From an uncultured Actinomycetes bacterium (lineage in GTDB: Bacteria; Actinomycetota; Actinomycetes; S36-B12; CAIYMF01), in assembly GCA_963843975.1 (NCBI GenBank), contig CAWJMG010000003.1, positions 1,710,001 through 1,742,000 on the forward strand: a stretch of DNA of 32,000 bases. Direction: 5' to 3'. The notes beneath the pieces are model-generated. The model saw nothing but the letters and a program-made list of their open reading frames with translations. It was not told the origin of the DNA and did not search any database. This document shows, one piece after another, positions 15,352 through 30,353 of this stretch (position 1 is the stretch's first letter; the number at the start of each line of letters is the position of its first letter). Both the position numbers and the translations under genes were made by a program.

Positions 15352-16941
15352 TCAGTTGCCGTACGGGTTGTACCAGAGGCGGCCGTCGATCTCGGCCGGC
15401 GTGAGCGCCGGCTCGATTCCGGTGAAGACCGTGAGGTCGCCGCAGGTGGTCTCGGTGAACGTGTGACCCGTGCCGGTCAACCGCTCGGCGAACACGGCGC
15501 GCTCGCGCTCCTCGTCGGCCGCGAGCGCCCACGTGCCCGGCGCATCAGGTGCGGGCCGATGGTCGAGGAAAAGCGTGACGAGCCGGGTCTGGCGGACGTC
15601 GTACCTCCCGTGGCCCGCGAGGTCGAGCGGCTCCACCTGCCAGTAGCTGCCCGCCACGTGGTCGACGCCGCTCGCGGCGAGGACGTCGGCCGCCGCGTCG
15701 GTGCACTGCTCCGGCGACGGGGCTCCGGCGCGGACCGCCGATTCGCGTGCCACCCACACGACGGTGCTCGAGGCGGAGCCGACGACGAGCACCGCTGCGA
15801 GCAGGACCCGGACGGACGACGGCACGCGGCGCAGCGGCGTCAGGACGAGCGCGAGGACGAACCACGGGAACGCCGCGACGAGGTAGCGCGGCTCGTCGAT
15901 CCGCCAGGACATCGGCGACAGCGCCACGACCAGCGGCATCGCGAGCAGCACGACGACGACCGCGCCCGCGGCGGGCCGGTCCGCCGAGGCTCCACCCCCG
16001 CGCGCCGCCGAGGCCATTGCCGACCACCATGCCGCGACCTGCCGCCGGTGCCGGACGGCCACCACCAGCAGCCCGGCGTACGCCGGCAGCACGAAGCACC
16101 ATCCGGCCACGCCCGGCAGCAGCGGGTCGAAGGGCAACGAGCGCCAGCCCCCGAGGGAGGTGGACTCGACCCCGAGCGCCTGAGGCACCTGGTGGGCGAG
16201 CACGCCGACCAGTCGGGTGGCGTAGGGCTGCTCCTCCGACTCGTAGGTCGGCACGATGCTCCACGTCCAGCCGCCGGACAGCGCCGCGGCCACCGCCCAC
16301 CAGGCACCGAGCAGCACCGCGACCTCCGTGGCCGCGGCCGCGCGCGCCGAGGAGCGGACGGCGGCGACGAGGTCGGGGAGGAACCACAGCAGCAGGGGGA
16401 CGAGCACGACGAGCGAGGTGACCGACAGCCAGACGCCCGTGACCGTGAGGGCGCCGATCGCGGCCATCCGCCACGCGCCGAACGGCCTGCCCCGGAAGCA
16501 GAGCAGTGCCACCGCCATGCCGACGACCTGCACGGACGAGTGCGCACCCCGCGGGTAGAGCGAGTAGAGCACCGCGACCCCCGGGCCGACAGCCAGCACG
16601 AGCCCGGCCACGAGGGCGCGGCGGTCGGAGGCGATCCGGCGTACGACCAGCATCGTGAGGGCGCAGATCACGAGGGCGAGCAGGATGCCGACGATCCGGA
16701 GCGTCCAGGCGTTCTCGCCACCGACGCCGAAGGCCAGCGCCGTGTCGGCCTGCTCGAGCGAGCCCATGTACCGCTGCCCGGCGTAGAACAGGTACGGCTC
16801 GCCGCCGAGCATGTGCCGGGCCATGAGCCCGGTGATGGCCGAGTCGGCGTCGTACGGCGCGAGCCCGAGGATCAGGACGCCGGCACGCACCGCCGCGGCG
16901 GCGACGAGGACTCCGGCGAAGAGCCACCAGAACAGGCGCAT
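15352..16941 (-). CDS. polytopic membrane protein, possibly a GT-C (ArnT/PMT-like) glycosyltransferase, with a C-terminal extracytoplasmic domain
   Basis: Frame of the 551-aa ORF 15352..17007. I prefer the ATG at 16941 (MRLFWWLF, GGAG 6 nt upstream), but the GTG at 17007 is possible. The first loop DADSAITGLMARHMLGGEPYLFYAGQRYMGSLE resembles the acidic first-loop motif of GT-C enzymes. There are more than 10 helices and a soluble tail of about 130 aa. The family call is tentative. Confidence 0.55.
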   Translation of the reverse strand: MRLFWWLFAGVLVAAAAVRAGVLILGLAPYDADSAITGLMARHMLGGEPYLFYAGQRYMGSLEQADTALAFGVGGENAWTLRIVGILLALVICALTMLVVRRIASDRRALVAGLVLAVGPGVAVLYSLYPRGAHSSVQVVGMAVALLCFRGRPFGAWRMAAIGALTVTGVWLSVTSLVVLVPLLLWFLPDLVAAVRSSARAAAATEVAVLLGAWWAVAAALSGGWTWSIVPTYESEEQPYATRLVGVLAHQVPQALGVESTSLGGWRSLPFDPLLPGVAGWCFVLPAYAGLLVVAVRHRRQVAAWWSAMASAARGGGASADRPAAGAVVVVLLAMPLVVALSPMSWRIDEPRYLVAAFPWFVLALVLTPLRRVPSSVRVLLAAVLVVGSASSTVVWVARESAVRAGAPSPEQCTDAAADVLAASGVDHVAGSYWQVEPLDLAGHGRYDVRQTRLVTLFLDHRPAPDAPGTWALAADEERERAVFAERLTGTGHTFTETTCGDLTVFTGIEPALTPAEIDGRLWYNPYGN

Positions 16942-17078
16942 GCGTGGCTCCGGCGCCGCCGGGCCGTCGGCCGAGTGCGGCTCCACCGCCTGCGCCGCAT
17001 CCGCCACAGCGCACCCCGCTCCCCGACGTCCCTGCCCACGTCGGCCGTCACGCTACCGGGACGTGCCACGATCAGCGC

Positions 17079-17393
17079 ATGACTGACGTGAACCTGGACG
17101 ACGCCCTCGCGATGGTCGTGGAGTTCCGCGCCGCCCCGGGGCGCCGTGACGAGCTCCGCGCCGAGCTGCTCGCGCTCGTCGAGCCCACCCGCGCCGAGGA
17201 CGGCTGCCTGCTCTACGACCTGCACGAGTCGCGCGACGACGAGGACGTGTTCGCGTTCTACGAGGTCTGGCGCGACAAGGCCGCGCACACCGCCCACGAC
17301 GCGACGCCGCACGTGGCCCGCATCCGCTCGGTCATCCCCGAGCTGGCCGTCGGCGGCAACCGCAAGCTCAACCTCCGCCGCATCGAGCCCTAG
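17079..17393 (+). CDS. antibiotic-biosynthesis-monooxygenase (ABM) domain protein / putative quinol monooxygenase
   Basis: ATG at 17079 in the frame of ORF 16944..17393. The 104-aa product has MVVEFRAAPGRRDELRAELLALVEPTRAEDGCLLYDLHESRDDEDVFAFYEVWRDKAAHTAH, typical of the YgiN/ABM ferredoxin-like fold. Confidence 0.8.
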   Translation: MTDVNLDDALAMVVEFRAAPGRRDELRAELLALVEPTRAEDGCLLYDLHESRDDEDVFAFYEVWRDKAAHTAHDATPHVARIRSVIPELAVGGNRKLNLRRIEP

Positions 17394-18400
17394 CCGGTCA
17401 GGTCCTGGCCCTCGGCGGCGTCCCTGCGGCGGGCGGCCATGCCGGACAGGACCTCCCAGACGACGCGGTGGCCGTTGTTGACCGTCACGTCGGCGTGGTC
17501 GTATGCCGGCGCCACCTCGACCACGTCCATGCCGATCACCTGAGTCTCCTGCGCGATGCGGCGTACGACGCGCAGCAGGTCGACGGGAGCCATGCCGCCC
17601 GGCTCGGGAGTGCCCGTGCCGGGCGCGAAGCCCGGGTCGAGCACGTCGATGTCGCACGAGATGTAGATGAGGTCGGGGCCGTCGAGGGCCTCGGCGATCA
17701 CGCGGTCGATCACCGCGTGGATGCCGTCCTCCCAGATCTCCTGCATGAAGTGGGTGCGCATCCCCTGCTCGCGCATCCAGGCGACGACGTCGGCGGGTGG
17801 CCAGTAGCCGCGCAGACCCACCTGCACGAAGTTGCGGCCGAGCACCGCACCGCTCTCGATCAGCCGGCGCATCGGCGTGCCGTGGCTCGCGAGGTTGCCG
17901 TCGATCTCCTCGGCCGTGTCGGCGTGCGCGTCGAAGTGGATGACGCCGACGCGCCCGTGGCCCACATGGTCGGCCACCGCCGCGACCGACGGCCACGTGA
18001 TCGCGTGGTCGCCGCCGAGCACCACGGGCACGATGCCGCGGCTGGCGACCGCGTGCACGCGGTCGTAGATCGCCTGCCGCGAGCGCTCCCACTGGCCGTG
18101 GCTGCAGATCGCGTCGCCGTAGTCGACGACGTCGAGATGGTCGAAGATCTCGAGCTGCAGGTCGAGGTGGTAGGTCCCGGGCGTGTGCGCGCCGCGCAGG
18201 GCCCGCGGGCCGAAGCGGGCGCCCGGGCGGTACGTCGTGCCGCCGTCCCAGGGGGCGCCGACCACGGCGACGTCGGGCTTCCACTCGTCGAGCTGCTCGG
18301 GCTCGGTCAGCAGCGGGCGGTGGCCGAAGGTGGCGGGGCCCATGTAGTCGTCCGCACCGAGCTGTTCGCGCATCCCGGGCGGGAGTCGTTCGTCGGTCAC
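17390..18400 (-). CDS. agmatinase-family ureohydrolase (agmatinase / guanidino-acid hydrolase)
   Basis: 336-aa ORF with the arginase-fold Mn ligand motifs GGDHAITWP, HFDAHADT and SCDIDVLDPGFAPGTGTPEPGG. Substrate specificity cannot be read from the sequence. Confidence 0.9.
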   Translation of the reverse strand: MTDERLPPGMREQLGADDYMGPATFGHRPLLTEPEQLDEWKPDVAVVGAPWDGGTTYRPGARFGPRALRGAHTPGTYHLDLQLEIFDHLDVVDYGDAICSHGQWERSRQAIYDRVHAVASRGIVPVVLGGDHAITWPSVAAVADHVGHGRVGVIHFDAHADTAEEIDGNLASHGTPMRRLIESGAVLGRNFVQVGLRGYWPPADVVAWMREQGMRTHFMQEIWEDGIHAVIDRVIAEALDGPDLIYISCDIDVLDPGFAPGTGTPEPGGMAPVDLLRVVRRIAQETQVIGMDVVEVAPAYDHADVTVNNGHRVVWEVLSGMAARRRDAAEGQDLTG

Positions 18401-18445
18401 GGCGTCACCCTAGGGCCGGCCGCCGGCATCCGTATCGTTTCACCC

Positions 18446-21370
18446 GTGACTGACGATCTGACCCTGCCCAGCCCCCTGAAGATCGCCGCCCGCCCCGCCC
18501 TGGACGCCGCGGGGGCCGCCCGCCTCGCCGACGAGCTGTTCGACGCGACCGGCCCGGTGCGCGAGCTCGGCAGCCAGCAGGACCGCAACTTCCGCGTCGA
18601 CACGGTCGACGGGCCGCGCGTGCTCAAGGTCGCGAACCGGGCCTGGGGGCGCGCCGCGATCGAGGCCCAGAACGCCGCCCTCGTCCACGTCGCCGGCGCA
18701 GGCTTCACCGCACCCGTCCCCGTGCCGGCACGCGACGGCTCGCTGCTGCTGGAGGCCGACGTCGCGGGCGAGCTGCTGCCGGTCCGCCTGCTGACGTATG
18801 TCGAAGGCACGCCGTTGTCGGGCGCCCGCTACCTCGCCCCGGTCGTCGTCGCCGACCTCGGACGGCTCGCGGCGCGCACCGCCGCGGCGCTGGCCTCCCT
18901 CGAGCACCCGGGCCTCGACCGGGTGGGGCAGTGGGACCTGCGCCGCGCGTCCGACGTCGTCGCCAGCCTGCTGCCCTCGGTGCAGGACGACGACCACCGC
19001 GTCCTCGTGACCGCGCGCACGAGCGACGCGCAGGCGCGCGTGGACGCGGTCGCGGGAGGCCTGCGGGTGCAGGCGATCCACGGCGACGTCACCGACGACA
19101 ACGTCGTCGGCGAGCCCGACGAGGCCGGCCGTGTGCGGCCGTCCGGCGTCATCGACTTCGGCGACCTCGGCCGCAGCTGGCTCGTGGCGGAGCTCGCCGT
19201 CACCTGCTCCTCCGTCCTGCGCCACCGCCCCGAGGAGCCGCTCGCGGTGCTCGACGCGGTGCGCGCCTTCCACGAGGTCGTGCCGCTCGACGACGCCGAC
19301 ATCGCCGCGCTGTGGCCGCTCGTCGTGCTGCGCGGAGCGACGCTCGTCGTCGCCGGCGAGCACCAGGCCTCGCTCGACCCGGACAACCCGTCCGCGACCG
19401 AGCCGCTCGAGTCGGAGTGGCAGATCTTCGAGGTCGCGCAGTCGGTGCCGTTCGAGGTGGCGGAGGCCGCGGTGCGGTCCGCGCTCGGGCTCGGCTCACC
19501 CTCGCGTCAGGCTGCCGTCCGGTCGGCACTGGCCGGGGCCGGGCGCCTGCTGCCCGACGTCCCCGCGATGGACGTCGTCGACCTCTCGACCGCCAGCGAC
19601 GCGCTCCACGGCGGACGCTTCCTGCAGCCCGGCGTCGAGCGCGAGGTGCTCCGCGCGGCCGCGGGCGACGGTGCGGCCGCCACGCGCTGGGCCGAGGCGC
19701 GCCTCACCCGTACGACGCCGCTCAGCGCCGCGGCACCGGCCACGGTCGCCCTCGGCGTCGACCTCGCGGTGCCCCGCGGCACCCGCGTCGCCGCACCCTG
19801 GGACGTCGTGGTGGCGGAGTCCGGCACCGGGCGCCTCGTGCTCGGCACCCCGGCGGGGCGCCTGCTCCTCGCCGGGGTCGCCGACGCACCGGCAGCGGGC
19901 ACGTCGGTCGCCGCCGGTGGACGCCTCGGCTCGGTCGACGACGGGCACCTGCACGTGCGGATCGGTCTCGAGCCCGGCCTCGACGTGCCCGAGCTGGCCG
20001 CACCCGGCGAGCGCGGGGCGTGGACCCTGCTGGCGGGCGACCCGTCGCCGATGCTCGGCACCGACGTCGCTGCAGCGCCGGTCGACGTCGACGGCCTGCT
20101 CGCGCGACGCGACGCCGTCTTCGCCGGGGTCCAGGAGCACTACTACGCCGAGCCCATGCGGGTCGAGCGCGGGTGGCAGCACCTCATGCTCGACACCGAC
20201 GGCCGCGCGTACGTCGACATGGTGAACAACGTCGCCGCGGTCGGTCACGGCCATCCGCGCCTCGCCGACGCCGTCGAGCGGCAGATGCGCAGGCTCAACA
20301 CCAACTCGCGGTTCCACTACGAGTCGGTGGCCGCCCTGTCCGAGCGGCTCGTGGCGCTGGCACCGGACGGACTCGACACCGTCTTCCTGGTGAACAGCGG
20401 CTCGGAGGCGGTCGACCTGGCGCTGCGCATCGCGCAGGTCGTGACCGACCGCCAGGACGTCGTCGCGACGCACGAGTCGTACCACGGCTGGACGTACCTC
20501 TCCGACGCGGTCACGACCTCGCTCTACGACAACCCGCGCGCGCTCGAGACCCGCCCCGACTGGGTGCACCTCGCGTCCGCGCCCAACCCGTTCCGCGGCC
20601 GGTTCCGCGGTGCCGACGCCGGTGCCGCCTACGGCGAGGAGCTGCGCCAGCTGGTCGAGCGCATCGCGTCCGAGGGACGCGCGCCTGCGGCGTACATCTG
20701 CGAGCCGGTGCTCGGCAACGCCGGTGGCGTCCTGCTGCCGCCCGGCTATCTCTCGGCGGCGTACGACGCCGTGCGATCGGTGGGCGGGCTCTGCATCGCC
20801 GACGAGGTGCAGGTGGGCTACGGCCGCACCGGCCACCACTGGTGGGCGTACGAGATGCACGGCGTGACGCCCGACATCATCACGATCGCCAAGGCGATGG
20901 GTAACGGCCAGCCTCTCGGCGCGGTGATCACGAGCCGCGCCGTGGCAGACGCATTCGCTGCGCAGGGCTCGTTCTTCTCCTCGGCCGGGGGCAGCCCGGT
21001 GTCGTGCGTCGTGGGCCTGACGGTGCTCGACATCATCGAGGACGAGCAGCTGCAGCAGAACGCGGCCGCAGTCGGCGACCACCTGATCGCTCGCTGCACC
21101 GAGCTTATGGACCGGCATCCGATGGTCGGTGCCGTGCACGGCATGGGCCTGTACCTCGGCGTCGAGCTCGTCCACGACCGCGAGACGCTCGACCCTGCGA
21201 CGGCCGAGTGCTACGCGATCTGCGACCGGCTGCGCGAGCTCGGCATCATCGTGCAGCCCACGGGCGAGCGGGCGAACGTGCTCAAGATGAAGCCGCCGAT
21301 GTGCCTCACCCGCGAGGCGGCCGACTTCTACGTCGACATGCTCGAGAAGGTGCTCGTCGAGGGCTGGTGA
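18446..21370 (+). CDS. tri-domain fusion: APH/hydroxylysine-kinase-like phosphotransferase, degenerate M23 peptidase-like domain, and class-III (AGXT2L-like) aminotransferase/phospho-lyase
   Basis: GTG at 18446 within ORF 17468..21370. The upstream part of that ORF is antisense to the ureohydrolase gene. The kinase has QQDRNFRV, IHGDVTDDNV (D214, codon 19085-19087) and VIDFGD. The M23-like part has LGVDLAVPRGTRVAAP..GHLHVRI. The PLP domain has VNSGSEAVD, ADEVQVGYGRTG and TIAKAMGNGQPLG (K816, codon 20891-20893). Confidence 0.85.
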   Translation: MTDDLTLPSPLKIAARPALDAAGAARLADELFDATGPVRELGSQQDRNFRVDTVDGPRVLKVANRAWGRAAIEAQNAALVHVAGAGFTAPVPVPARDGSLLLEADVAGELLPVRLLTYVEGTPLSGARYLAPVVVADLGRLAARTAAALASLEHPGLDRVGQWDLRRASDVVASLLPSVQDDDHRVLVTARTSDAQARVDAVAGGLRVQAIHGDVTDDNVVGEPDEAGRVRPSGVIDFGDLGRSWLVAELAVTCSSVLRHRPEEPLAVLDAVRAFHEVVPLDDADIAALWPLVVLRGATLVVAGEHQASLDPDNPSATEPLESEWQIFEVAQSVPFEVAEAAVRSALGLGSPSRQAAVRSALAGAGRLLPDVPAMDVVDLSTASDALHGGRFLQPGVEREVLRAAAGDGAAATRWAEARLTRTTPLSAAAPATVALGVDLAVPRGTRVAAPWDVVVAESGTGRLVLGTPAGRLLLAGVADAPAAGTSVAAGGRLGSVDDGHLHVRIGLEPGLDVPELAAPGERGAWTLLAGDPSPMLGTDVAAAPVDVDGLLARRDAVFAGVQEHYYAEPMRVERGWQHLMLDTDGRAYVDMVNNVAAVGHGHPRLADAVERQMRRLNTNSRFHYESVAALSERLVALAPDGLDTVFLVNSGSEAVDLALRIAQVVTDRQDVVATHESYHGWTYLSDAVTTSLYDNPRALETRPDWVHLASAPNPFRGRFRGADAGAAYGEELRQLVERIASEGRAPAAYICEPVLGNAGGVLLPPGYLSAAYDAVRSVGGLCIADEVQVGYGRTGHHWWAYEMHGVTPDIITIAKAMGNGQPLGAVITSRAVADAFAAQGSFFSSAGGSPVSCVVGLTVLDIIEDEQLQQNAAAVGDHLIARCTELMDRHPMVGAVHGMGLYLGVELVHDRETLDPATAECYAICDRLRELGIIVQPTGERANVLKMKPPMCLTREAADFYVDMLEKVLVEGW

Positions 21371-21954
21371 GCCGGCCGCTGGCCCCGCCTCGCGCGCTCC
21401 GCCGCGACTACGCTCGGCGGGTGCACGAGCCGACCGCACCGCACCCGTGGCACGTCCTCGTGGTGACAGGGGGGCTCGGTGCGGGCAAGACCTCCGTGGC
21501 GGTGGAGGTGGGCGAGGTGCTGGACGCCCGCGGCGAGCCGGTGTCGGTGGTCGACCTCGACCAGCTGTGCTGGACCTCGCCGGCGGGCTCGAGCTCGCTG
21601 ACGGTGGACGACGTCCTGCACGGCTCGCTGGCCGCGCTGCTGCCTGTGCACGCTGCTGCCGGCGTCCACCGGCTCGTCCTGCCCCGCCTCCTCCGCACGG
21701 CCGCCCAGGTGGGCGCGCTGCGCGAGGTGATCGGGCCGGCGTCGATGCTCGTCGTGGAGCTGACCGCTACAGCAGAGGCCAGGACGGAGCGCCTGCGGCG
21801 ACGCGACTCCGGCGCCGTGCTCGACGGCCATCTCACCGAGGTCGGGACGCTGCTGCCGGACGACGGCGCCGCCGACGTGCGGCTGGCGACCGATGGCCTC
21901 GCCGTCCGCGACGTCGCGCTCGAGGTGGTCCGGCTCTGGGACGCCGCGACCTAG
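21367..21954 (+). CDS. P-loop NTPase / small-molecule kinase-like protein
   Basis: Frame of ORF 21004..21954. The GTG at 21367 overlaps the upstream stop (GTGA), and the GTG at 21421 is an alternative start. The Walker A motif is VVTGGLGAGKTS, followed by VVDLDQL. The family is not recognised further. Confidence 0.6.
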   Translation: MSRPLAPPRALRRDYARRVHEPTAPHPWHVLVVTGGLGAGKTSVAVEVGEVLDARGEPVSVVDLDQLCWTSPAGSSSLTVDDVLHGSLAALLPVHAAAGVHRLVLPRLLRTAAQVGALREVIGPASMLVVELTATAEARTERLRRRDSGAVLDGHLTEVGTLLPDDGAADVRLATDGLAVRDVALEVVRLWDAAT

Positions 21955-21958
21955 CGGG

Positions 21959-24715
21959 TCAGACCTCGACGTCGCTGAGCAGCGAGATCGGGCCCCGGAG
22001 GTACTCCTCGTAGTCGGCGGGTGCCAGGGGCTGGGCCCAGAAGTAGCCCTGCGCGTAGTCGCAGCCCATGCCCTTGAGCAGGTCGGCCTGCTCGGAGGTC
22101 TCGACCCCCTCGGCGATGGTCCGGAGGTCGAGCGCCAGGGCGAGCTGCACCACGGAGCGCGCGAGCATGAGGCTCTGGCGCGAGCTGCCCATGACCGATA
22201 CGAACGAGCGGTCGATCTTCAGGCCGTCGACGGGAAGCGTCGAGAGGTACGACAGCGACGAGTAGCCGGTGCCGAAGTCGTCGAGCGAGAGCCCGATGCC
22301 GAGCGCACGAAGGTCTGCCAGCACCCGCTGCATGGCCTCGGACCGGTCGGCGAGCGTGGTCTCGGTGATCTCGAGGCTGAGCCACGAGGCGGGGAGCGCG
22401 TTGGCGCGGAGCACCTCGTCCACCGTGGGCACGAGGTCGGGCGTCAGCTGGTCGACCGCGATGTTGACCGCGACCCGCAAGGGGTGGCCCAGCTCGGCCG
22501 AGAGCCGTGCGGTCTCGCGCACCGCCTTGTCGAGCACCACGCGGCCGATCTCGCCGATGAGACCGATCTCCTCGGCGAGCGGGATGAAGTCGACCGGTTG
22601 CACCACGCGGCCGTCGACGTCGCGCAGCCGCGCGAGCGCCTCGGCTCCGGTCACGGCGCCGTCCGAGAGCCGGTGCACGGGCTGGTACCAGGCCTCGATG
22701 CGGTCCTCGGCGATCGCACGGCGCAGCCGGTTCTCGGCGGCGATGCGGCGCTCGATCTCCTCGCGCATGTCCGCGTGGTAGCCCACCAGGCGGGTGTGCC
22801 GACCGGACCTGCACCGGGCGAGCGCGAGGTCGGCGGCCTCGAGGTGCCAGTCGGCCGTGCGGCCGACGACGGGGTCGGAGACGACGTAGCCTGCGTGGAA
22901 GCCGAGCTCGATCTCCCGGCCGTCTGCCAGCAGCAGCCCGCGCAGGGCGCTGCGGCACTGGCCGACGACCTCGGTGACCTCCGGCTCCGGGTCGGGGGTG
23001 ACGACGAGGAGCGCGAACGTGTCGCTGCCGATGCGCGACGCAGCGCGGACGGAATCAGGCAGGTGGTCGAAGGCCGACGCGACGGCGACGAGGATCTGGT
23101 CTCCGGTGTCGTGGCCGAGACCGTCGTTCAGGGCGGCGAAGCGGTCGAGGTCGAGCATGGCGACCACGACGCTGTCCCCCGGTGCCGGTCGCTCGAGGTG
23201 CGTCGCGGTCTCGGCGAGGAACGCCTCGCGGCTGAGCAGCCCGGTGAGCTCGTCGCGACGTCGGCTGTTGGCGAGCTGACGTGCGAGCCGGCGCGCGTCG
23301 GAGACGTCGCGCGCGGTGATGACGTAGCCCCGGAACTCGACGTCGGTGATCGGGCGGATCACCGCCTCCATCTCCAGGACCGTGTCATCCCGGCCATGGA
23401 CGAGCAGGTCGTACGGCCCCCATCGGGAGGGATCGGTCGACACCTGGGTGAGCAGCAGCGCGACGTCGGAGTCGGACATGTCGACCAGAGCGGCGTCGAG
23501 CTGCCAGCCGCCGTCAGCACCCAGGGTGAACTCGGCGTCGCGCTCGAAGCGCGGGCTTGCCCACAGCACGCGTGCGGAGGCGTCGACGACGAGGACCGAG
23601 TCCGCCGAGTCGCCGACCAGAGCACGGAACCACCCCTCGCGCGTGCGGACGGCGAGCACCGTTGCCGCGCCCTCCTCCTGCGCCGAGCGGAGCTCGCGGG
23701 CAGCGGTCACCCGGGCCACCAGGACGCCCACCAGGATGCTGGTCCACGCCAGGACCGCCGCCCAGCGGCTGACCCCTTCGAGGTCGTCGGAGGCCCGCTG
23801 GACGACGACCACGCCGGCGACCAGCGCGAGGGCGACCGGGATCCCCGTGGCGATCTGCTCGCGGCGGCGACGCGCCCGGGCGGGCTCGGGCTCGAGCGGG
23901 GGCCGCAGCGCGAAGCCGGCGAGGAGCCATGAAGCGATGACGTAGCCGAGGATCGAGTAGGTGATCGAGGTCGTCTCGTCCGCCCCCGGCACCACCTGCC
24001 CGGCGAGATCGGACAGGAAGTAGATCAGCAGGCCCGCCAGCAGCCGGACCAGCTGCGGGTACGGCAGCGATCCGACCCGACGGCTGATCACGCCGACGCC
24101 GGCGGACGCCGCGAGCGCCCCGAACATGAGGGCCTGGTCGAGGTCCTGCCAGGCCTCGGTGCCTGGCGGCGAGATCCAGGCCGGCACCACGACGCTCCAC
24201 CACACCACAGCCAGCGCGAGGACCGCGACGAGGAGGTCGAGCACCACGAGGCGGCGCTCGCTCGGTGTCATCGCACGTGGCCAGCACATCCGGCCGAGCG
24301 CGTACGCGGCGAACGGGAAGCACAGCAGCGAGGGGATCACCTCGATGCGCGGGTCGAACGCCCCGGTCGAGGTCACGTGCGCGATGTAGCCGACCGCCTG
24401 TCCGATGCCCAGGATGGCGAGCGCGACGAGCATCATCCGCATCGCCGTGCGCCGCAGCGCATCGCGGCGTACCCGGTCGGCGAACGCCAGCACGAGCGCC
24501 GAGGCGCACGAGACTGCGTAGACGGCGGCGAGCGCGCCGCTCCACGGCATCGGGTCGAGGTCGCGGACCCGAGCGACGGCGTCGACGGCGACCGCGAGGA
24601 TCGCGCTGACGCTCGCGATCACGAGCAGGGCGAGGACCCGCATCCGGACGCGCCGCGACGCAGGCTCCCGAGCCTGCTGCGTCCCGTCCGTCGTCACGGC
24701 TTTCACGGTACGCAC
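21959..24715 (-). CDS. membrane-anchored PAS-GGDEF(degenerate)-EAL protein, probable c-di-GMP phosphodiesterase
   Basis: 918-aa ORF starting at GTG 24715. It has about 9-10 N-terminal helices (residues about 25-340) and a PAS-like segment. The GGDEF-domain signature reads RIGSDTF (codons 23015-23029) instead of RxGGDEF. The EAL domain has EALAR, NIA, EITE, DDFGTGYSS, KIDRSF, EGVE and QGY. Confidence 0.9.
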   Translation of the reverse strand: MRTVKAVTTDGTQQAREPASRRVRMRVLALLVIASVSAILAVAVDAVARVRDLDPMPWSGALAAVYAVSCASALVLAFADRVRRDALRRTAMRMMLVALAILGIGQAVGYIAHVTSTGAFDPRIEVIPSLLCFPFAAYALGRMCWPRAMTPSERRLVVLDLLVAVLALAVVWWSVVVPAWISPPGTEAWQDLDQALMFGALAASAGVGVISRRVGSLPYPQLVRLLAGLLIYFLSDLAGQVVPGADETTSITYSILGYVIASWLLAGFALRPPLEPEPARARRRREQIATGIPVALALVAGVVVVQRASDDLEGVSRWAAVLAWTSILVGVLVARVTAARELRSAQEEGAATVLAVRTREGWFRALVGDSADSVLVVDASARVLWASPRFERDAEFTLGADGGWQLDAALVDMSDSDVALLLTQVSTDPSRWGPYDLLVHGRDDTVLEMEAVIRPITDVEFRGYVITARDVSDARRLARQLANSRRRDELTGLLSREAFLAETATHLERPAPGDSVVVAMLDLDRFAALNDGLGHDTGDQILVAVASAFDHLPDSVRAASRIGSDTFALLVVTPDPEPEVTEVVGQCRSALRGLLLADGREIELGFHAGYVVSDPVVGRTADWHLEAADLALARCRSGRHTRLVGYHADMREEIERRIAAENRLRRAIAEDRIEAWYQPVHRLSDGAVTGAEALARLRDVDGRVVQPVDFIPLAEEIGLIGEIGRVVLDKAVRETARLSAELGHPLRVAVNIAVDQLTPDLVPTVDEVLRANALPASWLSLEITETTLADRSEAMQRVLADLRALGIGLSLDDFGTGYSSLSYLSTLPVDGLKIDRSFVSVMGSSRQSLMLARSVVQLALALDLRTIAEGVETSEQADLLKGMGCDYAQGYFWAQPLAPADYEEYLRGPISLLSDVEV

Positions 24716-29300: not shown

Positions 29301-29763
29301 GCGCTGCGCGGCAGCGTGCTGCTCAAGCCGCGCGCGTACGACGGCGGCACGAGCACCGAGCTGCTGGTGCGCGGCGGTATCGACCAGGCGGGGTCGCCGT
29401 ACGACGTGCTCGCACTCGAGCTCCTCGCTGCCCTCGACCGTTGCGGCCAAGGGCTACACCAGTGTGAAGGTGACGACGTGCCTGCGCCGGTCGCCGACGG
29501 GCACGAACGTCCTCGCGGGCGGCTACATGGCCTCGACGACGAGGTACGCCGGGTGGTTCTCGGCGATCGTCGACGAGTCGTCGGCGCAGGTGCGCGTCGC
29601 GGCCGGCACGATCGACTGCCGCACGCCGAACCTCGTCACGCCGGCGGTCGCGACGGCCGGCGGGCGCGTGCGCTGGTCGCTGTTCAACTGGGGCCCGCTG
29701 CGCACCGGCTACGTGCCCGTCTACCAGTTCACGATCACCGGCACGCGCTACACGCTCGCGTGA
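26400..29763 (+). CDS. secreted subtilisin-family (S8) serine protease with propeptide, two FN3 and two FlgD-Ig-like repeats; apparent +1 frameshift near 29400-29440 (possible pseudogene or sequence error)
   Basis: GTG at 26400 (GGAGAC upstream) with signal peptide MARTTLTRLVVPSLGAALVLGTLALPA. The catalytic triad is VAVIDTGI (D187), HGTHVTGI (H264) and GTSMAAPHV (S459). The FN3-like repeats have VRVSWLAP..GYLV..YVYTVNAY and GVTWGAP..GYVVQYR. After about 29430 the G/C third-position signal moves to the +1 frame (ORF 29464..29763), which ends at the TGA at 29761-29763. The total length is not a multiple of 3. Confidence 0.8.
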
Positions 29764-30353
29764 GCGACCGGCCCGACGTCCGCGGACTCGCGGCGCGCGT
29801 CCTCGCGACGCAGCCGTCGGTCGGCGCGGTGCGCGTGGTGTGCATCGACGGCCCGTCGGGCGCCGGCAAGACCACTCTCGCCGCCGGGCTCGTGGCGGAG
29901 CTCGCACCCTACGTGGGCGACGTGCCGGTGGTGCACGGCGACGAGGTGTACGAGGGCTGGGCCGTCGTCTCCGACGAGGCCGACCCCGTGCGCGCCTTCT
30001 CGGCGCTCGGCGAGCGGGTGGCGTCGTGGCTCGTGGCGCCGTGGGCGTCGGGTGCTGACGCCGAGCATCCGGTGTGGGACTGGCAGGCGCATGCCTGGGG
30101 TGGTCCGCGTCGTGTGCCGGCCGCGCCGGTGGTGCTGCTCGAGGGCGTCGGGCTCGGTGGTGCGCCGCTGCGGCCCCACGCCTCGCTGGTGGTCTGGCTC
30201 GACGCCGACCCGGAGCTGCGCATCAGGCGCGTCGCCGAGCGCGACGGAGCCGAGGTCGCGGCGCACATGGACGCCTGGCGGGAGCGCGAGGCGGCCTGGC
30301 ACGCGACCGACCGGACCGCGGAGCAGGCCGACGTCGTCCTCGCCACCGGCTGA
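29760..30353 (+). CDS. P-loop nucleoside/nucleotide kinase-like protein (uridine kinase-like)
   Basis: GTG at 29760 overlaps the protease +1-frame stop (GTGA). G/C third-position bias resumes in this frame. The Walker A motif is VVCIDGPSGAGKTTLA, followed by VVLLEGVG and VWLDADPELRIRRVAERDG. Confidence 0.7.
   Translation: MSDRPDVRGLAARVLATQPSVGAVRVVCIDGPSGAGKTTLAAGLVAELAPYVGDVPVVHGDEVYEGWAVVSDEADPVRAFSALGERVASWLVAPWASGADAEHPVWDWQAHAWGGPRRVPAAPVVLLEGVGLGGAPLRPHASLVVWLDADPELRIRRVAERDGAEVAAHMDAWREREAAWHATDRTAEQADVVLATG

Follow-up and report, generated by a model that had tools for sequence, protein, structure and literature searches.

A probable kinase/phospho-lyase fusion of family NF004800 and its variable neighbours in an uncultured actinomycete

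We analysed a 32,000-nucleotide stretch of DNA from an uncultured Actinomycetes bacterium (hereafter the window; positions 1,710,001 to 1,742,000 of contig CAWJMG010000003.1, assembly GCA_963843975.1), in which the gene of a 974-aa fusion protein lies back to back with a ureohydrolase gene and is followed by the gene of a small P-loop protein. An earlier note had proposed that these three genes form a pathway for an amino- or guanidino-alcohol. We think it fairly likely that the core of the locus is an ordinary kinase/phospho-lyase of family NF004800 and that the ureohydrolase is an optional, lineage-specific neighbour, not a fixed partner. The fusion protein probably acts on a small amino alcohol, first adding phosphate to it and then eliminating phosphate together with ammonia, a chemistry that we infer from homology to proven phospho-lyases.

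The fusion protein

The fusion gene (18446..21370 of the window, plus strand) encodes a three-domain enzyme that scored 1304.3 bits against NF004800 (PRK06149), well above the curated cut-off of 973, and its residues 14-974 matched profile positions 12-972 of 972. This family and its sister NF004799 (PRK06148) share the order of the three domains and the invariant catalytic residues with the protein described here. Compared with NF004800 the protein itself is not distinct; only its neighbours, an arginase-fold gene and a P-loop kinase gene, differ. Orthologs with 47-55% identity were found in Streptomyces, Mycobacterium, Leifsonia, Rhizobiaceae and Pseudomonas. An alignment covering 12 relatives, from Actinomycetota and Alphaproteobacteria (alignment A1), showed no variation at residues H212, D214, N219, D237, D786 and K816.

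The C-terminal domain (residues 571-970, 20156..21355, plus strand) is a class-III-fold pyridoxal phosphate (PLP) domain that resembles phospho-lyases. It belongs to this fold by its match to Pfam Aminotran_3 (261.9 bits, E = 1.1e-77) and by the invariance of the Schiff-base residue K816 and of D786, the pyridine-nitrogen residue of the DEVQ motif. The earlier note had called this enzyme intact, and both of the motifs on which it relied were recovered, DEVQVGYGRTG at residues 786-796 and TIAKAMG, with Lys816, at 813-819. To place the domain relative to AGXT2L1/2 and the 4-aminobutyrate (GABA) transaminases, bit scores were ranked against all PDB sequences. The top match was human ETNPPL (6tor, 360 bits), which aligned end to end, followed by the Arthrobacter phospho-lyase A1RDF1 (5g4i, 258 bits, residues 542-969). 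Dialkylglycine decarboxylase (199 bits), racemases (179-195 bits) and the GABA transaminases (GabT, about 167 bits) ranked lower. By these PDB scores the domain groups with the proven phospho-lyases and is nearer to them than to any transaminase, decarboxylase or racemase. It also has the NTNSRF motif (residues 618-623) in common with human ETNPPL, and this motif was invariant in alignment A1. Because the two closest solved relatives are proven phospho-lyases, a kinase step followed by a phospho-lyase step on an amino alcohol, as the earlier note had suggested, is well supported.

The N-terminal domain (residues 39-265, 18560..19240, plus strand) has the APH fold of small-molecule kinases, scoring 90.6 bits against Pfam APH (cut-off 23.2; E = 1.8e-25). 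Its active site is intact, with the catalytic loop HGDVTDDN at residues 212-219 (H212, D214, N219) and the metal-binding motif IDFGD at 236-240 (D237, D240), the motif residues being invariant in alignment A1. In a language-model search the nearest clusters were stand-alone bacterial APH proteins, one of them automatically named hydroxylysine kinase, which we take as a lead only.

The protein had previously been described as a kinase joined to a PLP enzyme. Both domains are present, but a third, at about residues 355-560 (19508..20125, plus strand), had been overlooked. The AlphaFold model of this middle region (pLDDT 95.8) is a degenerate LytM/M23 beta-barrel, and about 37 of the 40 Foldseek matches listed were LytM/M23 domains. 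The first zinc ligand of the M23 motif HxxxD is replaced by alanine (A435-L-G-V-D439), and the HxH motif, present here as H501-L-H503, is replaced in most relatives of alignment A1. Judged by these residues, the middle domain has the LytM fold but is not a peptidase; it is a catalytically dead barrel, which presumably acts as a scaffold.

The three genes are all intact, and their third-codon-position G+C of 0.93-0.96 indicates that the ureohydrolase, fusion and P-loop reading frames are real coding genes. The window has a G+C content of 72-75% and comes from a 4.19-Mb assembly in three contigs. The nearest public relatives of its genes are metagenome-assembled genomes (MAGs) labelled Candidatus Nanopelagicales or Frankiales.

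Gene neighbourhood within the genus

Neighbourhoods were compared in 18 genomes of the genus by calling and clustering open reading frames (ORFs) and scanning them with Pfam and NCBIfam models. Orthologs of the ureohydrolase, defined by more than 80% identity, were sought in 28 genomes. The order of genes was syntenic across the genus: histidine kinase, response regulator, (AI-2E transporter), CoA-transferase, a variable slot, the fusion, a second variable slot, PPK2, cupin and S8 protease. The ureohydrolase gene (17390..18400, minus strand, 336 aa) fills the first variable slot, beside the fusion, in 8 of the 18 genomes. Elsewhere this slot was occupied by a major facilitator superfamily transporter, a pentapeptide-repeat protein, a MerB-like protein, an aldo-keto reductase, a DM13 protein or an AsnC regulator, and in one genome (G011) the ureohydrolase ortholog was on another contig. 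No ortholog above the identity threshold was found in G007, which carries the closest relative of the fusion (86% identical), or in five other fusion-bearing genomes. This absence, together with adjacency in fewer than half of the genomes, is why we regard the ureohydrolase as optional.

The P-loop gene followed the fusion in 4 of the 18 genomes, including the two most divergent, and was missing from G007. All three genes occurred together in only two genomes of the genus (G000 and G021).

On the far side of the ureohydrolase gene, a minus-strand gene (15352-17007) encodes a very hydrophobic, multi-pass membrane protein of 551 aa that matched no Pfam or NCBIfam model. No counterpart was found in the syntenic slot of the other 17 genomes; the gene seems to have been inserted, in this lineage only, between those of the CoA-transferase and the ureohydrolase.

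Identity of the ureohydrolase

The ureohydrolase has the arginase fold (Pfam Arginase, E = 4e-87), and all six metal ligands (H132, D157, H159, D161, D250 and D252) are intact. The description of it as a member of the agmatinase family was partly borne out: it scored 207 bits against TIGR01230, which bears the label 'agmatinase', above the cut-off of 174.3, and 237.5 bits against PRK02190, below the cut-off of 302. The label is a loose one, as the closest solved relative was not the agmatinase SpeB but the Synechocystis guanidine hydrolase GdmH (7esr/7oi1, 219 bits). Next came guanidinobutyrase GbuA (185 bits), guanidinopropionase GpuA (175 bits) and proclavaminate amidinohydrolase (PAH, 172 bits); true agmatinases reached only 124-140 bits. 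Orthologs with 70-75% identity occur across Actinomycetota and beyond, so the protein appears to be a conserved general enzyme.

This ranking raises the possibility that the ureohydrolase is a guanidine hydrolase of the GdmH type, or a guanidino-acid hydrolase, which serves nitrogen scavenging and is unrelated to the fusion beside which it lies. That different members of the genus hold different genes between the CoA-transferase and the fusion would suit such an enzyme. GdmH genes are described as having those of the nickel maturases GhaA/GhaB (HypA/HypB-like) next to them and, in many cases, a guanidine riboswitch (PMC12704784). Neither hallmark was seen here: HypA/HypB-like genes were not among the neighbours in the window, and no guanidine riboswitch or other RNA family was matched in the window with Rfam. 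The identity to GdmH is, moreover, only moderate, and TIGR01230 was passed. On balance we consider scavenging unconnected with the fusion rather unlikely.

Agmatine is converted to putrescine by the agmatinase SpeB, by AguA with AguB, or by AguA with AguY (PMC12283126); no kinase or aminotransferase neighbour is mentioned in that account. The ureohydrolase of the window is nearer to guanidine hydrolase and the guanidino-acid hydrolases than to SpeB. An arginase-fold 'agmatinase' adjoins the fusion here, and AguA/AguB adjoin its Pseudomonas orthologs, as described below.

The P-loop gene

The P-loop gene (21367..21954, plus strand) had been reported to overlap the fusion gene as GTGA. The overlap of a GTG codon with the fusion stop codon TGA is present, and a start there would give a protein of 195 aa, but this start is uncertain: the first codon of a 79%-identical homologue corresponds to an in-frame GTG at 21421, which would give 177 aa, and family members can be aligned only from residue 28 or so onwards. 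The protein carries GGLGAGKTS, a Walker A motif, at residues 35-43 and the lid-like RLRRRD at 142-147. Its predicted structure (pLDDT 92.7) has a nucleoside monophosphate (NMP)-kinase-like fold with a lid, as expected of a small-molecule kinase. The best Foldseek match was chloramphenicol phosphotransferase (CPT; 1qhs, E = 7e-9, TM 0.64-0.69), and adenylylsulfate (APS) kinases and gluconate kinases matched further down. No Pfam model reached its gathering score (AAA_18, 22.3 against 29.4). Proteins of the family are about 170-185 aa long; 56 of 60 match AAA_18, and many also match AAA_33, APS_kinase or CPT. On the strength of the model, the protein is a second small-molecule kinase with the CPT/APS-kinase fold, and not a GTPase or a metallochaperone.

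Two other candidate relationships of this gene were rejected. The first, that its product is a nickel maturase of the HypB/UreG type serving a GdmH-like enzyme, does not agree with the CPT/APS-kinase type of fold. A 197-aa P-loop ORF at 29760-30353 is not a paralog, as the similarity is only at the level of the superfamily. The latter ORF (plus strand) is AAA_18-type and kinase-like, and forms a separate reading frame in the tail of the 1317-aa S8 protease ORF.

The divergent intergenic region

The ureohydrolase and fusion genes are divergent and separated by exactly 45 bp (18401..18445), in agreement with the earlier note. Each start codon is preceded at 6-7 nt by a -10-like hexamer of the form TAnnnT. 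The fusion has TATCGT at 18433-18438, and the ureohydrolase has TAGGGT at 18407-18412 on the minus strand. The same spacing between hexamer and start was seen in relatives for the fusion (L129, L130) and for the ureohydrolase (L121). This short, repeated spacing suggests leaderless transcripts from putative overlapping promoters arranged back to back, the two -10-like elements being 20 nt apart. Such overlap could couple the fusion and the ureohydrolase or make the two compete. A scan of 17000-22400 for sigma-70 consensus promoters and terminators found nothing.

In three relatives the gap between the fusion and a divergent AsnC regulator gene contains a palindrome, CTAGCGGATCG(C/A)TAG (L130, L123, L128). 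The palindrome is missing from the window at 18401-18445. In G021 the gene order is fusion, AsnC, ureohydrolase: an AsnC regulator is paired with the ureohydrolase, divergently from the fusion and P-loop genes. The AsnC regulator is lost in the genome studied here.

Gene neighbourhood outside the genus

Outside the genus we sampled 76 loci with 6-kb flanks (Rhizobiaceae, Pseudomonas, Mycobacterium, Streptomyces, Leifsonia and others) and a further 18 loci with flanks of about 8 kb, which came from 300 sampled genomes of the class. None of these 94 loci had an arginase-family or P-loop homologue near the fusion. Together with the counts within the genus, this means that the three-gene unit is not kept, and the expectation that the genes would be co-conserved was not upheld.

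Other guanidino-removing enzymes did adjoin the fusion. In Pseudomonas, aguA, the gene of agmatine deiminase, lies after the fusion on the same strand in 22 of 25 loci (L055-L116 range). About 100-330 bp past the fusion stop codon, half of these 22 loci have the order fusion-aguB-aguA, with the N-carbamoylputrescine amidase gene aguB in between, and the other 11 have fusion-aguA; all come from the fluorescent group. AguB scored 488 bits against TIGR03381 and AguA 576 bits against TIGR03380, both above the equivalog cut-offs. The aguA gene beside the fusion was the sole copy in 3 of 5 Pseudomonas genomes, which argues that it is a general agmatine gene and not a dedicated one. A dCache sensor kinase gene was often present upstream of the Pseudomonas fusion.

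Transporters of the PotABCD type (ATP-binding cassette, ABC) were found near the fusion in 5-10 of 34 rhizobial loci, in 3 of 8 mycobacterial loci and also in Thermoleophilia loci; a PotA-like protein scored 394.6 bits against TIGR01187 (cut-off 355.6). Other C-N hydrolases (an alpha/beta hydrolase, amidohydrolases and an S58 peptidase) lay beside the fusion in other lineages. This pattern of neighbours points towards polyamine-like amino alcohols. Each lineage counts as one evolutionary event, however, so that the statistical weight of the pattern is small.

Rhizobial loci had further recurrent neighbours. In 13 of them (L068, L074, L096 and others) a gene for formyltetrahydrofolate deformylase (PurU) was directly upstream of the fusion on the same strand, and downstream were genes for an S58 peptidase, a LysR regulator and a dipeptide-type ABC transporter.

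The proposal of a three-gene guanidino pathway therefore fared unevenly: co-conservation failed, and yet aguA/aguB in Pseudomonas, Pot-type transporters and other C-N hydrolases adjoin the fusion. In its full form, the ureohydrolase would take urea off a guanidino alcohol such as a hydroxyagmatine and leave a 1-amino-2-hydroxy diamine such as 2-hydroxyputrescine, the fusion would phosphorylate this diamine and cleave it to an amino-aldehyde such as 4-aminobutanal, on the way to GABA, and the divergent promoters would be co-regulated. Two non-homologous guanidino-removing enzymes next to the same fusion family in two phyla speak for such a pathway, as do the Pot-type polyamine transporters flanking the fusion in rhizobial, mycobacterial and Thermoleophilia loci, the divergent AsnC-ureohydrolase pair of G021 and the closeness of the two -10-like elements. 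Against it stand the absence of both partner genes from G007, the closest relative, and of an arginase-family neighbour from every locus sampled outside the genus. The wide distribution of the ureohydrolase marks it as a general enzyme, not a specialised partner, and the Pseudomonas aguA appears to be equally general. A hydroxyagmatine pathway was not found in the literature searched. We therefore regard the full pathway as doubtful.

A broader version would make NF004800 the core of an undescribed breakdown of hydroxylated guanidino-amines or diamines, for which different lineages recruited non-homologous amine-unmasking enzymes and Pot-type import; we think this improbable. There was also no sign of a substrate-specific subfamily. 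Pseudomonas and the present genus had been considered as a special subclade of the fusion, but this was rejected since the Pseudomonas identities to the query (47-49%) were not above those of rhizobia and mycobacteria (49-53%).

Some observations also weigh against the reading that we prefer, an ordinary NF004800 enzyme with a loosely associated ureohydrolase. The ureohydrolase ortholog occurred in 13 of the 28 genomes of the genus and lay beside the fusion in at least 8 of these 13, and AguA/AguB beside the Pseudomonas fusion represent an independent, non-homologous means of guanidino removal, so the ureohydrolase may be less loose a neighbour than we suppose. As to the enzyme, the best solved relative of the kinase domain was a homoserine kinase (2ppq, E = 0.0065) and none was close. 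No assayed member of NF004800 was found in the literature searched, and the chemistry proposed here rests on homology to ETNPPL and A1RDF1.

Unfused gene pairs and comparable systems

The same genome carries two unfused pairs of APH and PLP genes, one in which the APH gene is followed by an M23+PLP gene and one in which it is followed by a PLP gene. Their presence alongside the fusion argues, by the Rosetta-stone principle, that the two domains catalyse consecutive steps. In the first (L153:8026-13291, equal to G000:C3, ~1544300-1549600), genes for a HisD-like protein (441 aa), an APH kinase (367 aa) and an M23+PLP protein (676 aa) lie on one strand, with a LacI-type regulator divergent to them. 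The trio amounts to a paralog of the fusion in unfused form, accompanied by a HisD-like amino-alcohol/aldehyde dehydrogenase. In the second (L154:7976-11964, equal to G000:C3, ~1431175-1435160), an APH kinase gene (351 aa) is followed by that of a PLP enzyme without the LytM domain, and a gene of the Na+/H+ exchanger type with a TrkA-C domain lies upstream of the pair.

A rival reading takes the PLP domain for an ordinary omega-transaminase and gives the kinase domain an unrelated or regulatory role (an RdoA-like Ser/Thr kinase). We consider it very unlikely. In its favour are the source annotations ('4-aminobutyrate aminotransferase-like enzyme / Ser/Thr protein kinase RdoA') and the fact that characterised class-III-fold enzymes are mostly transaminases (PMC8154272), but both of the top solved relatives are phospho-lyases that score 60-190 bits ahead of every transaminase, the ETNPPL-like NTNSRF motif is invariant, and fusion as well as recurrent unfused pairing of the two folds argue for consecutive reactions.

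In a Thermoleophilia locus the gene of a RidA enamine/imine deaminase is directly upstream of the fusion, which fits an elimination since the reaction would release an enamine. In this MAG (L053:51-8883) genes for a Pot-like ATPase, a solute-binding protein, an HpaB-like flavin monooxygenase, an amidohydrolase, RidA and the fusion are all on one strand. The locus is a compact candidate operon, in which the hydroxylase could create the amino alcohol. One Streptomyces locus (L090:9005-10027) has an extra stand-alone gene of the APH kinase family directly after the fusion, analogous to the P-loop kinase gene after the fusion in the window.

The two-step logic is that of the animal enzymes HYKK (AGPHD1) and PHYKPL (AGXT2L2) or ETNPPL (AGXT2L1), in which an APH-fold kinase acts first and a PLP enzyme of the class-III fold then catalyses the elimination of phosphate and ammonia (Veiga-da-Cunha et al. 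2012, J Biol Chem 287:7246, as cited in PMC8154272). The animal enzymes are separate proteins without a LytM-like domain. The Arthrobacter aurescens protein A1RDF1 (PDB 5g4i/5g4j) is, like the PLP domain, a bacterial class-III-fold enzyme and was deposited as a phospho-lyase. Unlike the fusion, it stands alone without kinase or LytM domains, and its equivalent of NTNSRF reads differently.

A further parallel is the RMM (aminoacetone/aminopropanol) microcompartment of Mycobacterium and Rhodococcus, with an (S)-1-amino-2-propanol kinase (Mallette & Kimber 2018, J Biol Chem 293:19909, as cited in PMC8007038) and a class-III 'aminotransferase' (locus in PMC4207490). There too an APH-family amino-alcohol kinase is encoded beside a class-III-fold PLP enzyme for the breakdown of an amino alcohol. 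The RMM genes, however, are separate and form part of a shell-protein locus, and there are no shell genes here. No aminopropanol kinase was among the solved-structure matches of the fused kinase domain, of which 2ppq was the best. Bacterial kinase/phospho-lyase fusions were not found in the literature searched (A1RDF1, AGXT2L1 with AGPHD1, and hydroxyputrescine phospho-lyase).

Proposed mechanism and significance

In the mechanism that we propose, the APH-fold domain would use ATP to phosphorylate the hydroxyl group of an amino alcohol with a primary amine on the neighbouring carbon. The PLP domain would bind this amine as an aldimine and eliminate phosphate and ammonia, yielding an aldehyde or ketone, while the LytM-type barrel joins the two catalytic domains. 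The fusion gene would be transcribed as a leaderless message together with the P-loop kinase gene, the product of which may phosphorylate a second hydroxyl group or a related substrate. The fusion would not depend on the ureohydrolase, although this enzyme may supply it by freeing the amine of a guanidino compound. Candidate substrates are ethanolamine, 1-amino-2-propanol, 5-hydroxylysine and a 2-hydroxy-diamine. Were 2-hydroxyputrescine the substrate, the product would be 4-aminobutanal, leading into GABA catabolism.

Amino-alcohol kinase and phospho-lyase activities were reportedly described in Pseudomonas and Erwinia in the 1970s (Jones & Turner, Biochem J 1973). We know of no gene that has been assigned to them, and NF004800 is an obvious candidate.

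The locus adds one variant neighbourhood of a catalogued family and is not a new type of system. The family is nevertheless very common in bacteria of soil, plants and freshwater, among them Streptomyces, Mycobacterium, rhizobia and the fluorescent pseudomonads. The recurrence of agmatine-type enzymes and polyamine-type transporters among its neighbours narrows the search for a substrate to a short list that can be assayed, in which a hydroxylated guanidino-amine or diamine would be a testable lead.

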